64,000 nt of DNA. Source: a virus. Lineage: Duplodnaviria; Heunggongvirae; Uroviricota; Caudoviricetes. Position 1 is the stretch's first letter. Every line of letters starts with the position of its first letter. A program made the translations under genes and the position numbers. The notes beneath the pieces were generated by a model. The model was not told the origin of the DNA. It saw only the letters and a list, made by a program, of their open reading frames with translations, and ran no database searches. The stretch is taken from positions 19,494 to 83,493 of IMG/VR virus record IMGVR_UViG_3300028048_000050; one strand, given 5' to 3'. Below are positions 9,220-61,239 of the stretch, one piece after another.

Positions 9220-9461
9220 ATTTTACGTGAATTGTATCTTTTTTACACTTAGGGCATTTCATAGGCACAAAAAAAGGTGGTCATTTCTGATCACCTACAA
9301 GATTTATAAATTTACGTTCACCTTTAAAATTCGTATACCATAATACAGTATGTTTTCCTCCTATATAATCTGTATAAGAGTCAATCCATGGATGTGTATA
9401 AGTTATCACAGCCCATAAAATAAGTAAAATTATCCAAACCATAATATTTAGTTTTAGTTAT

Positions 9462-9540
9462 GTGCGACCACTGGGAATCGAACCCAGGTCTTCGGATTAG
9501 AATGTTATATTTACCTAGTCATTTATAATACATTTATCAA
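9462..9540 (-). tRNA. tRNA-like 3' fragment (T-arm CTGGG-TTCGATT-CCCAG plus acceptor 3' strand; no matching 5' strand found)
   Basis: The reverse complement of gtgcgaccactgggaatcgaaccc shows a T-arm. No pairing 5' acceptor strand lies within 150 nt. Confidence 0.25.
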
Positions 9541-10991: not shown

Positions 10992-11143
10992 ATTAAAAAC
11001 TATAGTATACCATTTAAAACAACTATTGAGAACTCTAGTTTAACGTTGTTTAGAGCTTTGGTACCCTCAACTCGGACATTAGTAATCTTGGTGAAGTTCT
11101 CATAAACGCAGTACACCTCAACTAACATAAACTATAGTTTTTG

Positions 11144-11223
11144 TAGGACTAAAGGGACTCGAACCCTCACTCCGTGGAATATGCTCCTAAGGCATACGTG
11201 TCTACCAGTTCCACCATAGTCCT
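11144..11223 (-). tRNA. tRNA-Leu (UAG), class II
   Basis: Anticodon arm TATGC-CTTAGGA-GCATA. It has a long variable arm and a T-arm GAGGG-TTCGAGT-CCCTT. Confidence 0.55.
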
Positions 11224-11231
11224 ATACCATT

Positions 11232-11483
11232 TTATTCTAAATTAAGTTTTAATCTACACCAATCACTAAATTTCATTGCTTTATCCAAACAGAAAATTTC
11301 AAAATCATTATCTACTGGATCATCACCAGTAATTATATAATATGCGAATCCCCATATTGGAGTAGTTGCAAGAAGAAATAATGTTCCTATAATTCCAAAT
11401 AATAGAGAACAAAAAGTTACTATACCAAATAAAAATCTTTTAAAATAAATCATTGTGGATAAATTATATCTGATTGTTTCCAA
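11232..11483 (-). CDS. small membrane protein (paralog of 17661..17867; shares the YYIITG(D/N)DP motif)
   Basis: 83-aa ORF with a hydrophobic core. The motif is shared with the ORF at 17661..17867. Confidence 0.4.
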   Translation of the reverse strand: METIRYNLSTMIYFKRFLFGIVTFCSLLFGIIGTLFLLATTPIWGFAYYIITGDDPVDNDFEIFCLDKAMKFSDWCRLKLNLE

Positions 11484-11941: not shown

Positions 11942-12289
11942 TTAAATTTTTTCTAATCTAACTTCAATTACTCCACCCTGCCAATTAGAGAGAAACATAT
12001 TTCCACCACATTTCTGTGATAACCATAATGGAGATTCATCAGTAAAAAATTCACTTCCAAATAAATCATTTAATTTCTTTTTAATGCTTTTTATTTCGGA
12101 ATTGAGTTCTTTTATCTTATCAGCATGTTTCTTTTTATTAAGAGTAGATACTTCTAATTCAAGTTCTTGTTTATTTTCATTCCATCTCTTATAAATATTT
12201 TCATAATCCGAATGTGCTATAAGATTCTTTACTTGAGATACTCCATATTTAGGATATGTAATCCTATAAATACCTAAAACTTTTTCCAT
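11942..12289 (-). CDS. hypothetical protein
   Basis: 115-aa ORF. Confidence 0.4.
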   Translation of the reverse strand: MEKVLGIYRITYPKYGVSQVKNLIAHSDYENIYKRWNENKQELELEVSTLNKKKHADKIKELNSEIKSIKKKLNDLFGSEFFTDESPLWLSQKCGGNMFLSNWQGGVIEVRLEKI

Positions 12290-14602: not shown

Positions 14603-14724
14603 ATATGCTAGGACTTCCTCTACCTAGCTTTGCAGATTTTCCAATTTTGGCTGGAAGGTTTACCTACACTTATGCAGTAGGTCGCACGCAGGTTCTGCTT
14701 AACCTTACCCGAAAAGGATTATAG

Positions 14725-14797
14725 TGCTCGTAGAGGGATTCAAACCCCCGGCACACTGTTTTGAGGACAGCTGTTCTGATCGCTGAACTATACGAGC
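14725..14797 (-). tRNA. tRNA with anticodon UCA (opal/UGA-reading; suppressor- or Sec-like; C33 instead of U33)
   Basis: Canonical 73-nt cloverleaf: acceptor GCTCGTA/TACGAGC, D-stem GTTC/GAAC, anticodon arm GCTGT-CCTCAAA-ACAGT, T-arm GGGGG-TTTGAAT-CCCTC. Confidence 0.5.
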
Positions 14798-17041: not shown

Positions 17042-17428
17042 TCATTTAATTCCCAATTCTTCCTTAAATATTTCAAGAGCCTCTTTAGCATCTTTTTCTC
17101 TAAGGAAATAAGCTATACCAGGATATAAAACACTAGCATGTTTAATTATAGTCCACCCATCATAAGAATTTTTTCCTATAAAATATTTATCTTGATCAGG
17201 ATAAAACTTATCACTAGGTTTCTTATAAAATTCTGCTAATGTTTTTAAAATACCTTCTTCTTTAGGGATTTTAAATGAACCAACTATTAAAGATATTTCA
17301 GAATAAGATAGTCTATTTAATTCTTTTTCAGTAAAAGCTTGTAAAGCTAATTCTTTTAAAGTTGGATTATTACTAATATACCACTCTTTAGCTTTAAACA
17401 AAGATACTTTGATATTTCTTGTTTCCAT
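17042..17428 (-). CDS. hypothetical protein
   Basis: 128-aa ORF. Confidence 0.4.
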   Translation of the reverse strand: METRNIKVSLFKAKEWYISNNPTLKELALQAFTEKELNRLSYSEISLIVGSFKIPKEEGILKTLAEFYKKPSDKFYPDQDKYFIGKNSYDGWTIIKHASVLYPGIAYFLREKDAKEALEIFKEELGIK

Positions 17429-30707: not shown

Positions 30708-30782
30708 GAAGAAAGATTTTCAGTCTTTTGCGTTTACCATTCCGCCACATTTCCAATCGGAAAAGAAGGGATTCGAACCCCT
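30708..30782 (-). tRNA. candidate circularly permuted tRNA-Phe(GAA)-like gene: T-arm plus acceptor 3' strand (30758-30782) sit directly upstream of acceptor 5' strand, D-arm and anticodon arm (30708-30754)
   Basis: Sense order: AGGGG-TTCGAAT-CCCTT CTTTTCC G ATT GGAAATG TG GCGG-AATGGTAAA-CGC A AAAGA-CTGAAAA-TCTTT. The 3' strand pairs 6 of 7 with the downstream 5' strand. No T-arm follows the anticodon arm. Confidence 0.3.
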
Positions 30783-30863
30783 ATTTCATTCATACGAATG
30801 AGATTGTAAGTATCTTATATTACTAATACGTTAGAAAGTTTTCTAAAAAAGGTTACTAAATGA

Positions 30864-30943
30864 TTACGTCAAATTACAAATTTGATGCTCTACCATTGAG
30901 CGATTCTGGCAAAAATGGAGCCCGAACTAGGAATCGAACCTAG
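30864..30943 (-). tRNA. candidate circularly permuted tRNA-Thr(UGU) gene: 3' half including an encoded CCA (30911-30943) lies upstream of the 5' half (30864-30910)
   Basis: Sense: CTAGG-TTCGATT-CCTAG TTCGGGC T CCA TTTTT GCCAGAA TC GCTC-AATGGTA-GAGC A TCAAA-TTTGTAA-TTTGA CGTAA. The reassembled 76-nt cloverleaf is canonical with a 6 of 7 acceptor stem. Confidence 0.35.
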
Positions 30944-34101: not shown

Positions 34102-34211
34102 CGGCGAGGGTGGGAGTCGAACCCACTTTTTCAAATTTGACATATTTGCGTTAATAAATTTGATGTTGTAAGTAACTAAACAGATACTCATTTCCGTTTA
34201 ACTACCTCGCC
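34102..34211 (-). tRNA. 110-nt tRNA-Asp(GUC)-like gene with a family insertion between the D region and the anticodon arm
   Basis: Acceptor GGCGAGG/CCTCGCC. Anticodon arm CAAAT-ATGTCAA-ATTTG. T-arm GTGGG-TTCGACT-CCCAC. The insertion contains GAGTATCTGTTTAGTTACTTACAAC. Confidence 0.4.
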
Positions 34212-35014: not shown

Positions 35015-35129
35015 GGAGGCCTGTAGGATTCGAACCTACACTATTAGTCTATCCTAAGGGAACACTTTCTAACCCGAAGCTTATTTACCTTTAAAGATAG
35101 TTGTGCTACCCGATTAACACTAAGACCTC
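35015..35129 (-). tRNA. 115-nt tRNA gene with a different insertion of about 40 nt (contains GCTTCGGG) enclosed by stem CTATC/GATAG; the loop begins TTTAAAG (UAA-like)
   Basis: Acceptor GAGGTCT/AGGCCTC. D-stem GTG/CAC. T-arm GTAGG-TTCGAAT-CCTAC. Confidence 0.3.
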
Positions 35130-35353: not shown

Positions 35354-35403
35354 TTATAATATTATAAGTATCTTTAAAGACATTAAGATGAGTAAAGTAA
35401 TAG

Positions 35404-35480
35404 TGGAGAAGGAAAGACTCGAACTTCCAAACACTTATACCTAGAATTTTAAGCTGCTATACCATTTCGCATACTTCTCC
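35404..35480 (-). tRNA. tRNA (the loop CTTAAAA suggests a Leu-UAA type; the anticodon stem is unclear)
   Basis: Acceptor GGAGAAG/CTTCTCC (perfect). T-arm TGGAAG-TTCGAGT-CTTTCC. Confidence 0.35.
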
Positions 35481-48239: not shown

Positions 48240-48806
48240 AATTGTTAAGTTTATTTGTTTGTACGAATATATTTTTCGTTTCGTTCTGGCCTCATCAGCA
48301 AACCTTTTTTACGTCTTCCAGAATGACGGGAATTTTTAAGGATTTTAAATCCTTAGGATAATTCTCAACCAAATATTTTTTTAAAATTATAAAGGGTATT
48401 AGAATTAAATGGTTATACATTAGAATAATGTTACCAAACTTAAACTCGGTCAAAATCACCCTTTTTGAGATGATGTTGGTTTAAGTTTTGCAAGTTTGGG
48501 TGGGTTCGACGCCTGTGCCCGAGAGCATATCTCCCATAACAATTTTTTCAACAAATCATTATGTGAGAAACGTATTTTACCCACTAAACCCTTGTTATGA
48601 AGAAAGAAGACAGCTCATTCAAATCCCCTAAAATTTGAGTTGAACTGCCTTCATAATTCTCCACGGATAACACCTGGTCTGAATGAGAAATACATACTCT
48701 ATACCTATTTTATAAAAGGTTTCTGGAGCAACTTGTATTTCTCCTTCTTTAGAAAGTAGCTTAGTGGGAGATAGTAACCTCCCACGTAAGCATACTAAAC
48801 CGTTCA

Positions 48807-50759: not shown

Positions 50760-50897
50760 ATTATAGGGATTTAGACAGACCCGTGATGCGCACGTACGCA
50801 CGGTTACGATAACTATATAGTGTAACCGCAGAGTTACCCATAATATTTTATATATAGTATAGGCTTAGGTTTAAAAATAAAAGGGATAAAATCCCTT

Positions 50898-51140
50898 TTA
50901 AGCGAAGCAATTATGGATAGATTCTTCTTTCCATATCTTAATTGCTATGTTCACTATGGAACTCTTTGTTGGTCCTTTTTCATTAGGACTAACAAAGAAG
51001 TAAGCCTTAGCCTTACTAACTAAGTTGTTCCACTCTTTTTCTGGAATAACTACACCAGCACGAAGTGCTAAGGTGTGCATCTCAGAATCAGATAAATTCC
51101 AGAACGACTTTTTCTGAGACTGCTTGAAAATCTGTTTCAT
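50898..51140 (-). CDS. hypothetical protein (first gene of the minus-strand block, adjacent to the control region)
   Basis: 80-aa ORF. Confidence 0.35.
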   Translation of the reverse strand: MKQIFKQSQKKSFWNLSDSEMHTLALRAGVVIPEKEWNNLVSKAKAYFFVSPNEKGPTKSSIVNIAIKIWKEESIHNCFA

Positions 51141-51784
51141 ATGCTAAATAATTTAATAAATAAAGGACTGAGGAATTAACCTCAGTCCAAGAGCCCTATC
51201 TTTGCTACCCTCTCTCCGAATTCCAGGGACCGTCACGGAGGAATGAGGAAGATGGAACTGAAACTATTTCAGTTCTACTTATCTCCTAAATATATAATAA
51301 TTCTTTAGATTTACTTCTCAGGATGAGAAGTGGTGGCTTAGGTTTTCATTTTCCCACGCGTGACCACAGGGGGAGCCGAGGGGTAGTGTACCCCCTCCCT
51401 CACAACAAAAAAAATTTCAAAAAAATTTTAGAAAAAATTTTAGAAAATAAAAACCCTTATAAAAAATATAGGGGGGGGAATATAAAAATAACTTTCAAAA
51501 AATAAAAAAAAATAAAAAATTTTTATAGAGGTGTTAAACTCGAAAGGAAAAATTCAAGCCGGAAGGCCAATTAATTATAGTTATTTAATTATAGTATTAA
51601 TTATAGTTAGTGTCGAATTTTTTAATAGACCCATAGGTATTTTTTAACTAACCCATATTTATTTTTTAATTTACCCGTTGGATTTTTTAATTTAGTCCTA
51701 AAATTTTGAAATTTTCATAGAGGTGGATATTTTTAATATAAATAAAATTATAAAAATATGTAGTATGAATAGAATAAATAGTTT
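51141..51784. promoter_or_regulatory. divergent intergenic control region between the minus-strand block and the plus-strand late block: GGCTTAGGTTT motif (51335-51345), GC hairpin GAGGGG-tagtgtac-CCCCTC (51378-51397), G8 run, three TTAATTATAGT repeats (51569-51610), four direct repeats of about 21 bp NNNNATTTTTTAA(C/T)TA(A/G)CCC (51613-51698)
   Basis: No credible ORF. It is very AT-rich apart from the GC hairpin. The iteron-like direct repeats were seen directly in the sequence. Confidence 0.5.
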
Positions 51785-52321
51785 GTGATACTTCCAAATG
51801 AGGTAGTAGATTGTGAAGAAATTAGTCCAAAAACTTTGGTAGTTTATTGTGCTATAAAACAACATATGAATAAAGATACTTTAGAAGCTTTTCCTGGAAT
51901 TAAAACTATTGCTAAAGAAGCGGGATGTGGAGAAGATGCTGTAAGAAAAGCAATTAAAGAATTGGTAGATAATAAGTTTATACAACAAATAATAAGACCA
52001 GGTCAAAGTACAATTTATAAATTCTCTACAACAAAAAGTTTTGAACCTTTCTCATATGATTTTTTAAAAGATGATAAAATAAAGATTAGAGAAAAAGCAT
52101 ACCTTATGATGAATCAAAAAGATATGTATAATAAAGGAACTGGAATAGGAACAATTTCTTTCTCTACAAAAGAAGTGGCAAAAAGAACTAGAATGTCTGT
52201 TCCTACAGTATTAGCTTGTGAAAACACTTTAATAAAAGCTGGATATTTATCTAAACCTGATTCAAAATTAATAGATACAGAATCTGGAACACATCAAGAT
52301 TTAAGAATGTATTTATTATAG
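51785..52321 (+). CDS. putative winged-helix / HTH DNA-binding protein (regulator or replication-initiator-like)
   Basis: 178-aa ORF. It is the first gene in the plus direction after the control region and has no TAG codon. Confidence 0.4.
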   Translation: MILPNEVVDCEEISPKTLVVYCAIKQHMNKDTLEAFPGIKTIAKEAGCGEDAVRKAIKELVDNKFIQQIIRPGQSTIYKFSTTKSFEPFSYDFLKDDKIKIREKAYLMMNQKDMYNKGTGIGTISFSTKEVAKRTRMSVPTVLACENTLIKAGYLSKPDSKLIDTESGTHQDLRMYLL

Positions 52322-52525
52322 TTATATAATATGGCTGCTGTCACATATAGATAGACACAATAGAATACAGAGGATATACAAGAATTACAAAAAGATAATG
52401 CCATAATGAAAAAACAAATTGAAATATTAACCAGAGCTATATTTAAAGAAGAAAAAACTCCAGAAATTAAGATTTAACATTTTTTAAATTTGTCTTTTTA
52501 AAATAACAAATATATTAGTATTGTT

Positions 52526-52891
52526 ATGAAACAGGAAGAAATATTAAAAGCTCTCATAGAAGAGCTATTCGCAATGGACACACTACATCAAGAATATCAA
52601 GATAATGATTCTCATTTTGTAGTAGATTCAACAAGAGAAGGAAATACTTTAACTATTAAAGTACAACTTTTAGAAAATAAAGATAAGAAAGAATTTGAAA
52701 ATTGGTTACAACAAGTTGATGATGACCTTTTCCAAGAAGTTTTAGAGGAACTTGCAGAGAGAGAAGGTCTTACAGATTTAGACTCTCTTTACAAGACTGA
52801 AAATTACCAAAAAGTAATTGACAAAGTAAAAGCTAAAACTAAAGAAATAGCTGCTCGTAAGATTAAAAATCTTAAAAAGTTACTTTCTTAA
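52526..52891 (+). CDS. acidic hypothetical protein
   Basis: 121-aa ORF. Confidence 0.4.
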   Translation: MKQEEILKALIEELFAMDTLHQEYQDNDSHFVVDSTREGNTLTIKVQLLENKDKKEFENWLQQVDDDLFQEVLEELAEREGLTDLDSLYKTENYQKVIDKVKAKTKEIAARKIKNLKKLLS

Positions 52892-52907
52892 TAAGTAACT
52901 AGAGATT

Positions 52908-52995
52908 GCTCTGTGGTGTAATGGTTTAGCACAGCGGACTCTAAATCCGTAGCCCTCTGAAGGCGTAAGTGTGGGTTCGAATCCTACCAGGGCAA
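52908..52995 (+). tRNA. amber suppressor tRNA, anticodon CUA, class II (long variable arm; closest in arm sequences to this window's own tRNA-Leu(UAA))
   Basis: Acceptor TGCTCTG/CAGGGCA. D-arm GTG-TAATGGTTTAG-CAC. Anticodon arm GCGGA-CTCTAAA-TCCGT. Variable arm AGCCCTCTGAAGGCGTAA. T-arm GTGGG-TTCGAAT-CCTAC. Confidence 0.6.
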
Positions 52996-53196
52996 CAACA
53001 TTAATACAATTTTAGAATGGATACAAAATTATTTAAAGATTTATATCAAGCAAATATTGATGAAATTAAAGCTATAGAACAATTATCTATAGAACATAAT
53101 ATGTTAGATAATGGATATTACTTAAACTGGAAAGATAATTTAAATAAACTATCTATAGATTTAGATAGAGAATAATAATTAAATTTTAATGGGTGT

Positions 53197-58963: not shown

Positions 58964-61239
58964 TGGAGGAAATTAAAAAGAAAAGAGGTCGTCCACGTAA
59001 GAATCCTATACCAGAAGTTCCTGAGGAAGTTTAGTCTATAATTACTGAGGTTCAACAAAAACAAGAGGAACTTCAACAGCAAATAGAAGAAATAAAGCCT
59101 TAGGTTGTAGAACACAAAGAAGGTGAATGGGATGTCAAAATAGGAGACCCGATACCTTACTTTGATAAAAGACTTTCCTATGAATTAACTGGATATAGAC
59201 CTATTACAGAAACAGAAGGATTAGATTTTGATCCTTCTTGGTTTACTGAAGCTAGAGAAATATTCTTAAAGACAGAACAATATTGTTCTTATTATCCAGG
59301 CTCAAAACTTTATAGAGATTTCTGGAATGAAGAATATAGAAGATGTAAGGAAGGAATGACAGTTAATGGTTATACTATTACTGGATTTAACTATTACTTT
59401 CTTAATTATTATCAATTACCTAATACAGAACAAGATGTAGCCGGTGATAGCCGTTCTATTATATTTCCAAGATTCTTTGTATATCAATACGAATTCTTTC
59501 ATTACTTTGAATTATGTAGAAAGTTAAGAAAGAATATGACTGTAATGAAAAACAGAGGATGTGGATTTTCTGAGATACATGCTTCTATATTTGATAATTT
59601 CTTTAACTGTTTTAAAAATAGTATATGTCTTCTTACTGCTTTCGATGATAACTATGTTAAAAAAACTCTTGATAAAATTAATGCAGGAATAACTTTTACT
59701 GATGATAATACTCAAGGAGGAATGTTAAAACTTAGACAAGTTATTAATACAGCAACTAAGAAAAGAGCTTCTCACTATAAAGTAGTAAATGGTCAAAAAA
59801 TTGAAACAGGTTTCATGTCCCAAATTGAAGGAATTGTTGTAGATAAGGATAGAAAGATGAGAGGTGACCGTGTAGGTTTCTTATTTCTTGAAGAATCAGG
59901 TTCTAATCCTATACTTGAACGTTCCTTTATTAAAGCAGAAGAACTTGTAACTGTTGGTGGTAATAAAATTGGTATTATAGCAGCAGTAGGAACAGGTGGT
60001 GATGCCGGTCCTAATCTTGAAGGTTTAAGAAAAGTATATTATAATCCTAAAATGTTCCAAGTGCTTCCATTTAAACATAATTATACAGAAGATGGAGATT
60101 GGGTTGAAACTGCTTATTTTATACCTGCATATATTTCAATGAATAACTCAAAATTTGTTGGAAGTCGTGGTGAATATCTCATGGAAAAACAAAGAGAACA
60201 TTATGAACAAAGACGTGCAGATATAACTGATCCTAAAACTTTATTAGACCATAAAGCAGAGCAATGTTTCACAGCTGAAGAAGCCTTTGCAGCGGAAGGT
60301 GTAAATAAATTTAATAAACTTAAAATAGCTGAACAAATTATAGCTATTAGAATTAAAAAACAAGCTCCTCCTATTCAAAGAGGATATATGGAGTTTGTAT
60401 ATTCTGGTCCAGAAAGAAAAAGAGAAAATATTATCGGAGTTAGATTTAAACCTAATCCGAATGGGCCTGTTAGAATATTAGAAGAACCTTTATGGGAAGA
60501 CGGAAGTCCTATAATCCAAAATCTTTATGTAGCAGGAATTGACGGTATTGATATTGGACAAGCAGAAACTTCTAAAGAAACTAGAGATCCTTCTAAATTT
60601 TGTACTATGATAAAACGTAGAGTACATGGAATGAAGGAACCTATGTATGTGGCATATTATTTAGATAGACCTAATGATATTAGAGAAGCATACAAACAAA
60701 CAATGGCTTTATTATGGTATTATCAAGCCAAAGCTAATATAGAAGCAACTCGTTTGTCTGTTCTTACATACGCTCGTGATAATAAGTTTGCACATTTCTT
60801 TATGAAACGTCCTAGAGCTTGTTATGGAGGAGACGAAAGAAGAAGAACTAATGGACAATACGGTACTACAGCTACTACAGCCATGATTGAACATGGCACT
60901 GATTTAGTTGCTTCGTATGTAGAAGATTACTGTCATAATATATGGTTTATAGAATTTTTAGAATAGTTAAATCTTTATACTGATGAAAATAAAGGTAAAT
61001 TTGATATGGTTGCAGCGTGTCAAATGGCAGAAGTTGGAGATGAAGAGTTAAGTGATATTATTCCAAGAGAATATAAACCAGTTTCTAAGGAATTTAAAGA
61101 TATAGGATATTACACCGACGAAAATGGACATAAAAAATTTGGTGTAATACCAAAACAAAATGAAAACTCTGTTAGAGGACATATAAATACAGGATATGTC
61201 GAGGGTTATAATATAACAAGTAATTCAAGATATAGATGA
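58963..61239 (+). CDS. terminase large subunit-like protein (about 758 codons, three in-frame TAGs)
   Basis: The ATG at 58963 overlaps the upstream TAA. The N-terminus is MEEIKKKRGRPRKNPIPEVPEEV-TAG-..., with a second TAG at 59101. The body is the ORF at 59356..60966 (Walker-like VMKNRGCGFSE and LLTAFDD, plus an RNase-H-like nuclease motif LYVAGIDGIDIGQAETSKETRDPS). A TAG at 60964 joins it in frame to 61006..61239, which ends at a TGA. Confidence 0.5.

Follow-up and report, generated by a model that had tools for sequence, protein, structure and literature searches.

Iteron-type theta origins of plasmids (P1 oriR/repA, F, pPS10, R6K and RK2 oriV) are among the described systems closest to the locus analyzed here, a cassette at positions 51558-52477 of a 64,000-nucleotide (nt) stretch of a Caudoviricetes genome (positions 19,494 to 83,493 of IMG/VR record IMGVR_UViG_3300028048_000050; this whole stretch is referred to as the window). 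As in those origins, four to five phased direct repeats of about 22 bp adjoin a repeated AT-rich element, a putative initiator with two winged-helix domains is encoded beside the array, and a promoter-like element overlaps the repeats; the four to five copies, the length of 22 bp and the helical phasing match the defining features of plasmid iterons as reviewed earlier (PMC4980987). Unlike in the plasmid origins, the protein is not of the Rep_3/RepA type (Pfam recognizes HTH_36 only) and carries a long C-terminal coiled coil, no DnaA box (TTATCCACA, at most one mismatch) is present in 51141-51784, the AT-rich 11-mer is invariant across lineages that have wholly different iterons, and the element belongs to a phage genome of lytic type, about 179 kb in size. 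In P1, the initiator is autoregulated through promoter-overlapping repeats. The lambda origin has four phased iterons and an adjacent AT-rich region, as does the cassette in the window; however, the iterons are located upstream of the gene here and inside the O gene in lambda. A further close system, besides lambda ori/O, are the DnaD-like or 'replisome organizer' initiators of Firmicute phages. The N-terminal winged helix is homologous at the level of PHROG families to the O-like and DnaD-like families, whereas the 239-amino-acid protein lacks the C-terminal effector domain that O and DnaD have.

Among phages of comparable genome type, the zeta crAss-like phage Lera (179,624 bp; PMC12386605) has an origin predicted by Ori-Finder where its two gene blocks of opposite orientation meet. 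The phage studied here is like Lera in genome size (179.6 kb in Lera), tRNA richness, the presence of both suppressor tRNAs and a candidate origin at the block junction, a likeness of organization. The origin in Lera is a prediction by compositional software, and the text of that paper mentions neither iterons nor a triple repeat nor an initiator. An iteron origin with an adjacent initiator gene belongs to a known class, and it is of note that the searchable literature contains no comparable element for crAss-like phages: no paper linking crAss phages with iterons was found, and the software prediction for Lera was the sole origin encountered.

We propose that the cassette is an iteron-type replication origin with its own autoregulated initiator gene, and assign to this reading a probability of roughly 50%. 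A candidate origin and/or early-late switch had been suggested for 51141-51784 in an initial annotation made from the sequence; the former has become the leading reading because the iterons, the triple repeat and the winged-helix gene form a conserved functional unit and because the N-terminal domain of the protein is initiator-like. In what follows, the anatomy, the layout kept in relatives, the lineage-specific iterons, the domain homology, the TAG recoding and the separate assortment of the two cassettes are observations, and we infer the identity of the iteron-binding protein, the melting site, autoregulation and origin activity itself.

Anatomy of the right cassette

The cassette, here called the right cassette since a second one lies to its left, comprises a small GC hairpin, a triple 11-mer, iterons, a promoter-like element and the gene for the 239-amino-acid protein, in this order:

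51558..51567, no strand assigned: small GC hairpin GCC-GGAA-GGC, directly 5' of the triple repeat, with a T-rich run after the hairpin on the minus strand
51571..51610, plus strand: triple repeat, TTAATTATAGT x3 with 14- and 12-nt spacing, its last part being TATAGTTAG
51611..51716, plus strand: iteron array, with copies at 51615-51632, 51637-51654, 51659-51676 and 51680-51697 and a degenerate fifth at about 51701-51716
51705..51735, plus strand: promoter-like element, TTTG (51705-51708), a 19-nt spacer and TATTTTTA (51728-51735), overlapping the last, degenerate iteron
51758..52477, plus strand: gene for the 239-amino-acid protein, ATG start and TAA end
52907..52996, plus strand: suppressor tRNA with anticodon CTA, in the same direction as the winged-helix gene and 430 nt 3' of it, given for context only

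The three copies of TTAATTATAGT reported initially are exact and located at 51571, 51585 and 51597, the sole other exact copy in the 64 kb being at 17142. The triple 11-mer is 82% AT, its units lie 12-14 nt apart and it abuts the iterons. The four direct repeats, initially given as about 21 bp long, were recovered by Tandem Repeats Finder (TRF) with a period of 22 (3.5-4.6 copies, 51616-51714, score 85) together with the degenerate fifth copy, which overlaps the -33 element of the promoter; their spacing is 22, 22, 21 and 21 nt. Self-identity of the array at lag 22 amounts to 65% over 88 nt, a value reached by 7 of 63,913 window positions, and among the top-scoring lag-22 positions listed, three (51603-51614) are within the array. 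Over lags of 8-40, higher scores came only from coding repeats near 31-32 kb, and no other non-coding periodicity in the window is as strong as the array. A degenerate iteron consensus yielded four matches in 64 kb, all of them in the array (expected 0.61), and since it occurs nowhere else in the window there is no sign of a regulon.

The TTTG/TATTTTTA pair is presumably a promoter of the Bacteroidota sigma-A type. TATAAT boxes of the sigma-70 -10 type, located in the triple repeat on its minus strand, were considered and dropped because promoters of host type appear to have the Bacteroidota TTTG/TAnnTTTG form.

The helix-turn-helix gene adjacent to the region had been delimited as 51785..52321, from a GTG to a TAG. 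Its boundaries are instead ATG 51758 and TAA 52477, because relatives are 236-250 amino acids long and encode Gln or Glu by ordinary codons at the positions of the in-frame TAGs of the window (codons 2, 5, 8, 188, 199 and 202), none of them having an in-frame TAG in this gene; with TAG read as sense, the gene ends at TAA 52477. Consequently, the non-coding region extends over 51141-51757. An open reading frame (ORF) of 121 amino acids without family match follows 3' of the gene (52526-52891, plus strand); it has counterparts of 119-126 amino acids in the relatives L010, L013, L017 and L018 and none in L014 and L007.

Conservation of the cassette in relatives

Relatives were gathered in two ways, by exact-protein look-up and through an IMG/VR scan for TATAGTN{0,3}TAAKTATAGTTAG, and the cassette is present on over 25 contigs of related phages. 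The pattern scan returned 41 loci, 21 of which have an ORF of the family downstream at an expect value (E) of 1e-43 or below. The succession of triple repeat, iterons, promoter-like element and gene was seen in all 26 modules examined, with proteins down to about 31-35% identity. Upstream of every family member fetched, the triple repeat is near-invariant, namely TAAKTATAGT x3 with terminal TATAGTTAG. Iterons are present in two to five copies (three to five in 24 of the 26 modules) and are mostly spaced by 20-22 nt; the few larger gaps are due to the core detector passing over a degenerate copy. Regarding conservation of the repeats, which the initial annotation had named as a point to check, their position, copy number and phase are thus kept in all relatives, whereas their sequence is kept in close relatives only: about 16 unrelated core types were found between lineages, for example GGATTTTTTAAT..CCC, ATCAACTGTGAAA, TTTTGACACC, CGGAATTTCTGATT and TAGCCAATACCC, each homogeneous within its array, while the triple repeat is constant. 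Arrays that are homogeneous within and divergent between lineages indicate that the adjacent gene encodes a lineage-specific binder with multiple sites. Together with the movement of the cassette as a unit, the linked divergence of sites and gene is what a pair of cis-site and trans-factor would predict.

The smaller elements are kept to differing extents. A GC hairpin beside the triple repeat, with varying stem sequence (GGCC-GGAC-GGCC, GGCC-GCAC-GGCC, GGC-GAAA-GCC or CAGC-GGA-GCTG), was recognized by eye in about half of the 23 modules listed, and RNAfold placed a GC stem abutting the repeat in about 10 of them. Within 110 nt 5' of the ATG, at a distance of about 4-55 nt from it, a promoter-like element TTTG-N18-20-TAnnTTT(G/A) was found in nine of nine modules with a placeable start codon.

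The cassette is also located away from strand switches: as a tandem duplicate in L007, flanked by a giant gene and a convergent block in L014, and in a co-directional run in L015. In L007 (3845-5714), the two tandem paralogous cassettes have a triple repeat each, and their iterons are ATCAACTGTGAAA x4 and of the GATTTTTTAAC type, respectively. Furthermore, triple or quadruple repeats of the TAAGTATAGT type with iteron arrays but no recognizable family gene just downstream were observed in L024 (about 9270-9500) and L035 (minus strand, about 11130-11260), and L029 (about 12030-12080) has a TAAGTATAGT-type repeat as a 10-nt tandem without iterons. Because such repeats occur without the family gene or without iterons, the triple-repeat element may be more general than the cassette.

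The winged-helix protein

The AlphaFold model of the 239-amino-acid protein (mean predicted local distance difference test score 74.5) shows, as a prediction, two winged-helix domains and a C-terminal coiled coil: a winged helix at residues 24-89, a highly conserved FEPFSYDFL segment, a second winged helix at 110-161 and a 50-residue C-terminal helix. Pfam searches with the 178-amino-acid ORF of the shorter gene call detected HTH_36 (PF13730; residues 12-66, 59.8 bits against a cut-off of 25, 2.2e-16) and neither Rep_3 nor Phage_rep_O, DnaD_N staying below its cut-off (21.2 versus 27 bits). PHROG families of replication initiation, O-like and DnaD-like helicase loader proteins matched 38 of 38 aligned members (best E=5e-23), always via the N-terminal 90 residues or so, and tblastn likewise aligned the N-terminal domain only, to Bacillus and Clostridioides phage and plasmid proteins annotated as DNA replication or DnaD. 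Since the PHROG and tblastn matches fall in the N-terminal domain, sequence comparison points to its homology with the origin-binding domain of phage replication initiators. Fold matches in BFVD included a replicon initiation protein, the N-terminal domain of GpO and Replication protein O. The PDB sequence search returned non-significant matches only, and NCBIfam gave nothing above its cut-offs.

Winged helices combined with a coiled coil resemble small-terminase and centromere-binding architectures. The array might accordingly be a packaging site of the pac/cos type, recognized by a protein like the small terminase, or else a centromere bound by a TubR/ParR-like protein, and there is a weak match to the TubR profile (E=0.094) as well as a PhageTerm start in Lera at about 1.2 kb from the block junction (PMC12386605). 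However, the TubR match is not significant, the downstream gene encodes 121 amino acids without family match and not the TubZ GTPase of type III partition (tubC/TubR/TubZ), no partition NTPase is adjacent (the conserved neighbour of 119-126 amino acids being without family match), TerL is encoded about 7 kb away and the tandem duplicates of L007 do not fit. We consider packaging or partition functions highly improbable.

Evidence for and against a replication origin

If the cassette is a replication origin, the binding sites of the 239-amino-acid protein would be the four to five 22-bp iterons, which face the same side of the helix at intervals of two turns. The protein-iteron complex would melt adjacent DNA, for which the best candidate is the invariant AT-rich triple 11-mer, placed as are the repeated 13-mers of the DNA unwinding element in oriC and RK2 oriV, and the DnaB-like helicase encoded at 587-1690 would then be loaded. 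Binding at the last, degenerate iteron, which lies over the -33 element, would make initiator synthesis autoregulated, in the manner of RepA at P1 oriR. In the lineage of the window, the full-length protein would be made only once the phage suppressor tRNA(CTA) is present, because TAG stands for Gln at codons 2, 5 and 8. Host or phage machinery may recognize the triple repeat, or it may be recognized in single-stranded form.

Several observations weigh against an origin. Sites directly upstream of the gene's own promoter are also the layout of an autoregulated transcription factor, and fold searches list generic MarR, CRP and CodY regulators first, the winged-helix fold not being discriminating. 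The protein is short, its homology to initiators is confined to a DNA-binding domain, and beyond the two winged helices and the helix no helicase-loading or DnaD/DnaB_2 domain is recognizable in it; both winged helices are about equally divergent (about 40% mean identity), and neither explains the invariant triple repeat. The plasmid search retrieved no full-length homologue as the sole replication gene on any plasmid. The DNA between 51141 and 51784 has no DnaA box, as mentioned above, and neither the spacer left of the cassette (stability rank 163-207) nor the triple repeat is exceptionally unstable as compared to other intergenic DNA of the genome. Two tandem cassettes, as in L007, are unusual for origins. 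A Mantel-type test of protein versus iteron similarity, with a crude metric and unreliable domain coordinates, gave no signal; for the C-terminal part (178-239) the correlation was not a number, and the small p-value printed with it is an artefact. In addition, clustering of GATC was absent, and the idea that the AT-rich spacer is a uniquely unstable unwinding element was abandoned as helical stability did not support it.

The main rival to an origin is that the winged-helix protein is an autoregulated transcription factor, for which the iterons serve as operator or as upstream activating sites and have no role in replication. This would fit with an array that abuts and overlaps the gene's own promoter-like element, with top structural neighbours among MarR, CRP, CodY and LexA regulators, with the label of GntR-family regulator that one source gives to a cluster member, and with the tandem paralogues of differing site specificity in L007, which are natural for regulators. 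On the other hand, a series of four to five phased sites that reaches about 125 bp upstream from the promoter exceeds what autoregulation needs, no further target sites exist in the 64 kb, the N-terminal domain is consistently nearer to replication-initiator than to regulator families, and the invariant triple repeat and the hairpin beside the array would be left unexplained. A purely regulatory role is thus possible, if somewhat unlikely, and we favor the replication origin.

As an extension of the origin proposal, the cassette might be a portable module of origin and initiator gene in zeta-type crAss-like phages, in which a common triple 11-mer serves for melting or loading, the iterons give incompatibility-like recognition specific to each lineage and, in the lineage of the window, the initiator is gated by TAG; in all its parts, this is rather unlikely. 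Recognition of the triple 11-mer would then fall to conserved machinery of host or phage, or to the FEPFSYDFL segment acting on single-stranded DNA. The TAG codons 2, 5 and 8 would block the full-length protein until the suppressor tRNA is available, and TAG at codon 188 in combination with the internal GTG 51785 could give a form without the coiled coil, loosely analogous to monomer/dimer control of plasmid Rep proteins.

The left cassette and the spacer

The region had been annotated as one control region. It is, judged from the comparison of relatives, two cassettes that recombine independently and are joined at an AT-rich spacer: L064 has the left half of the window (87-98% identity) together with an iteron cassette of the TATCAATTTTGA type, and L001 has the right cassette of the window (91% identity, from about 51386 rightwards) with a different left side. 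The homology breakpoints fall in the AT-rich spacer. Of the elements that the initial annotation had combined, the GC hairpin and GGCTTAGGTTT belong to the leftward cassette and the G-run to the spacer.

The left cassette covers 51155-51405 and reads, on the minus strand, as the TTGTGAGGG element, AAACCTAAGCC, a hairpin, AATCTAAAGAATTATTATATATTTAGGAG, a GC-rich structured stretch, a terminator-like hairpin and then an ORF of 80 amino acids. Its features and those of the spacer, from left to right, are:

51155..51188, minus strand: terminator-like hairpin GGACTGAGG-TTAATT-CCTCAGTCC (51188..51165), then TTTATTTATT, from the terminator scan
51155..51334, minus strand: body of a candidate structured non-coding RNA, with hairpins 51313-51331 and 51254-51275, the core CCUCCG...CUGGAAUUCGGAGAG and the terminator
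51335..51345, minus strand: AAACCTAAGCC motif (GGCTTAGGTTT on the plus strand), the first of four copies heading successive leftward units
51346..51405, minus strand: conserved element TTGTGAGGG - GGGGTACACTACCCC hairpin - CTCCCCC - GGGAAAATGA, a single copy in the window, holding the initially annotated hairpin 51378-51397
51406..51557, no strand assigned: AT-rich spacer with AAAAAATTTTAG x3.3 (51409-51447, by TRF), a G8 run (51471-51478) and an A-run (51497-51519)

The hairpin at 51378-51397, which had been described as GC-only, has an A-T pair in its stem (GAGGGG/CCCCTC) and an 8-nt loop. It is the weakest in the region (-4.9 kcal/mol as DNA, z=-1.9) and was equalled by 10 of 200 shuffles. 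Three strong hairpins had been missed, at 51165-51188 (-9.3 kcal/mol as DNA, z=-5.4), 51254-51275 and 51313-51331, with z values from -5.4 to -7.3. The first of these, the terminator-like hairpin, has a 9-bp stem with 6 GC pairs and shows the GC-rich stem-loop and T-run of rho-independent terminators; it is kept in L005 and L064, where the tail is TTTTCTTTTCTTTT, a better T-run. The RNA body is GC-rich in a genome of 29% GC, with fold z values of -2.4 on the minus and -3.7 on the plus strand, and has homologues with differing hairpin insertions in L005, L064 and L013. Changes on both sides were seen at three base pairs, for example CCUCCG/CGGAGAG to CUUCCG/CGGAAUG, which is weak covariation from three or four sequences. 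A search of 51155-51405 against Rfam identified no family (best SorY with 21.8 bits versus a gathering threshold of 111, E=0.1), and scans of IMG/VR with two RNA motifs returned nothing or chance matches in coding DNA.

Variants of the TTGTGAGGG element occupy the same place in L001, L010, L013, L017, L018, L036, L056 and L064. A conserved secondary structure was rejected for it, and we treat it as a sequence motif, because the hairpins predicted are inconsistent between relatives. A 60-amino-acid ORF at 51323-51505 (plus strand) is taken as spurious, as it runs through the poly-A and the G-run; it had been called on one contig and not on two others identical here.

GGCTTAGGTTT has four exact copies in the window, all on one strand (50042, 50157, 50862 and 51335, the last being in the region initially annotated), and the copy at 50862 follows directly after a terminator-like hairpin (50900..50878). 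Over this span of 1.3 kb, each copy of AAACCTAAGCC is followed by a GC-rich structured stretch, and GC content is 44% at 49-51 kb as compared to about 29% elsewhere. Near-copies of the motif are located between the RNA terminator and the 80-amino-acid ORF, AAAACCTAAGCA in L005 and AAAATCTAAGCA in L064. Together, the copies and near-copies suggest a chain of leftward promoter-to-terminator units. The left cassette would be the first of at least four such transcription units, each headed by AAACCTAAGCC and closed by a terminator, and such a chain could possibly yield several small RNAs. The left cassette itself appears to encode a structured non-coding RNA, whose transcription we infer from the promoter-like motif, the conserved structure and the terminator; it would be roughly 130-250 nt long. 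In phage phi14:2, long intergenic regions near the early end out-transcribe most genes from the earliest time point (bioRxiv 10.1101/2020.03.07.982082). The window likewise has a long structured non-coding stretch at the start of the early/replication-side block, a comparison made by position, and the abundant early non-coding RNAs of phi14:2 are a plausible parallel for an RNA from the left cassette.

The G8 run of the spacer, confirmed at 51471-51478, is the sole run of seven or more G in the window but was equalled in 21 of 100 shuffles and is thus not significant on its own. In relatives, the run is G9 in L001, G8 in L010, G11 in L013 and G5AG4 in L017, and it is absent from L018 and L064. 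Slippage-prone spacing and a recombination scar are possible explanations of the run.

Genome setting and gene blocks

A metagenomic contig of 179,005 bp contains a stretch identical to the window. The window has a GC content of about 29% and 33 tRNA genes, including three suppressor tRNAs at 14724-14797 (minus), 35403-35480 (minus) and 52907-52996 (plus), one with anticodon TCA and two with CTA (35403-35480 and 52907-52996). Its TerL is crAss-like, with 25-29% identity to that of named crAss-like phages and about 45% to that of uncultured gut phage contigs, and a phage of about 179 kb with a heavy tRNA load and suppressor tRNAs matches the zeta crAss-like group (PMC7886860; PMC12386605). Neither a DNA similarity search among catalogued phages with the window nor an IMG/VR scan with a single protein gave a match. 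Covariance-model matches to tRNA at 30758-30910, 34102-34211 and 35015-35129 (minus strand) are over-long for tRNA (110-153 nt), and ARAGORN made no call there; they may be intron-containing or disrupted tRNA genes, zeta crAss-like phages being reported as intron-rich. A local search also gave a sub-threshold match to the RAGATH-1 hammerhead ribozyme at 48257-48329 (minus strand; 40.5 bits versus a gathering threshold of 56.3, E=1.3e-5), with the CUGAUGA and GAAA core present.

Transcription polarity flips at the region, as the initial annotation had noted, and the leftward ORF begins at 51140. The standard code applies in the left block (1-51140, minus strand), where a DnaB-like helicase (587-1690) and an SNF2-type helicase are encoded, whereas the right block, with genes for an amidase, a PD-(D/E)XK nuclease, TerL and portal, uses TAG as sense, namely as Gln, since reading TAG through lifts stop-free runs from 2181 to 3611 codons. 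The recoding signal concerns TAG only and TGA not at all, which is the reverse of the case reported for phage Lera. The TerL gene (59200-60966) seems to have an N-terminal extension (MEEIKKKRGRPRKNP...) also with TAG codons.

This arrangement bears on the early-late switch suggested initially, in which the iteron-bound protein would repress leftward early transcription and activate the recoded rightward block. The cassette does head the rightward block (lysis, nuclease, terminase, portal) in the window, L010, L013, L017 and L018, the suppressor tRNA(CTA) is encoded just downstream and the right block is TAG-recoded. By contrast, the cassette is found without divergence in L007, L014 and L015, the left and right cassettes assort independently, the iterons lie more than 200 bp from the leftward promoter-like motifs, and relatives have the winged-helix gene without in-frame TAG. 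Because it is found away from polarity flips, the cassette is not intrinsically an early-late switch between divergent blocks, and such a role in the window is very unlikely.

The GC-skew analysis that the initial annotation had recommended for locating the origin turned out to be uninformative: although the minimum of the skew coincides with the junction, skew in relatives tracks the gene strand, being unchanged across the cassette in L007 and switching the opposite way just downstream of it in L014, where gene orientation reverses. Compositional evidence therefore cannot place the origin, as GC skew tracks gene strand only.

Implications

Among viruses of the human gut, crAss-like phages are the most abundant. 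For these phages, the right cassette is a concrete and testable origin candidate with a compact cis-site and a trans-factor, and it has a DNA signature by which it can be recognized, namely TAAKTATAGT x3 ending in TATAGTTAG and followed by repeats of 21-22 nt. With the left cassette comes a candidate for an early non-coding RNA such as RNA-seq has shown in phi14:2. If confirmed as an origin, the right cassette would offer a handle for replicons and for the engineering of hard-to-culture phages and their Bacteroidota hosts, as well as a marker for lineage comparison and incompatibility studies, and it would be a case of an essential gene drawn into TAG recoding.

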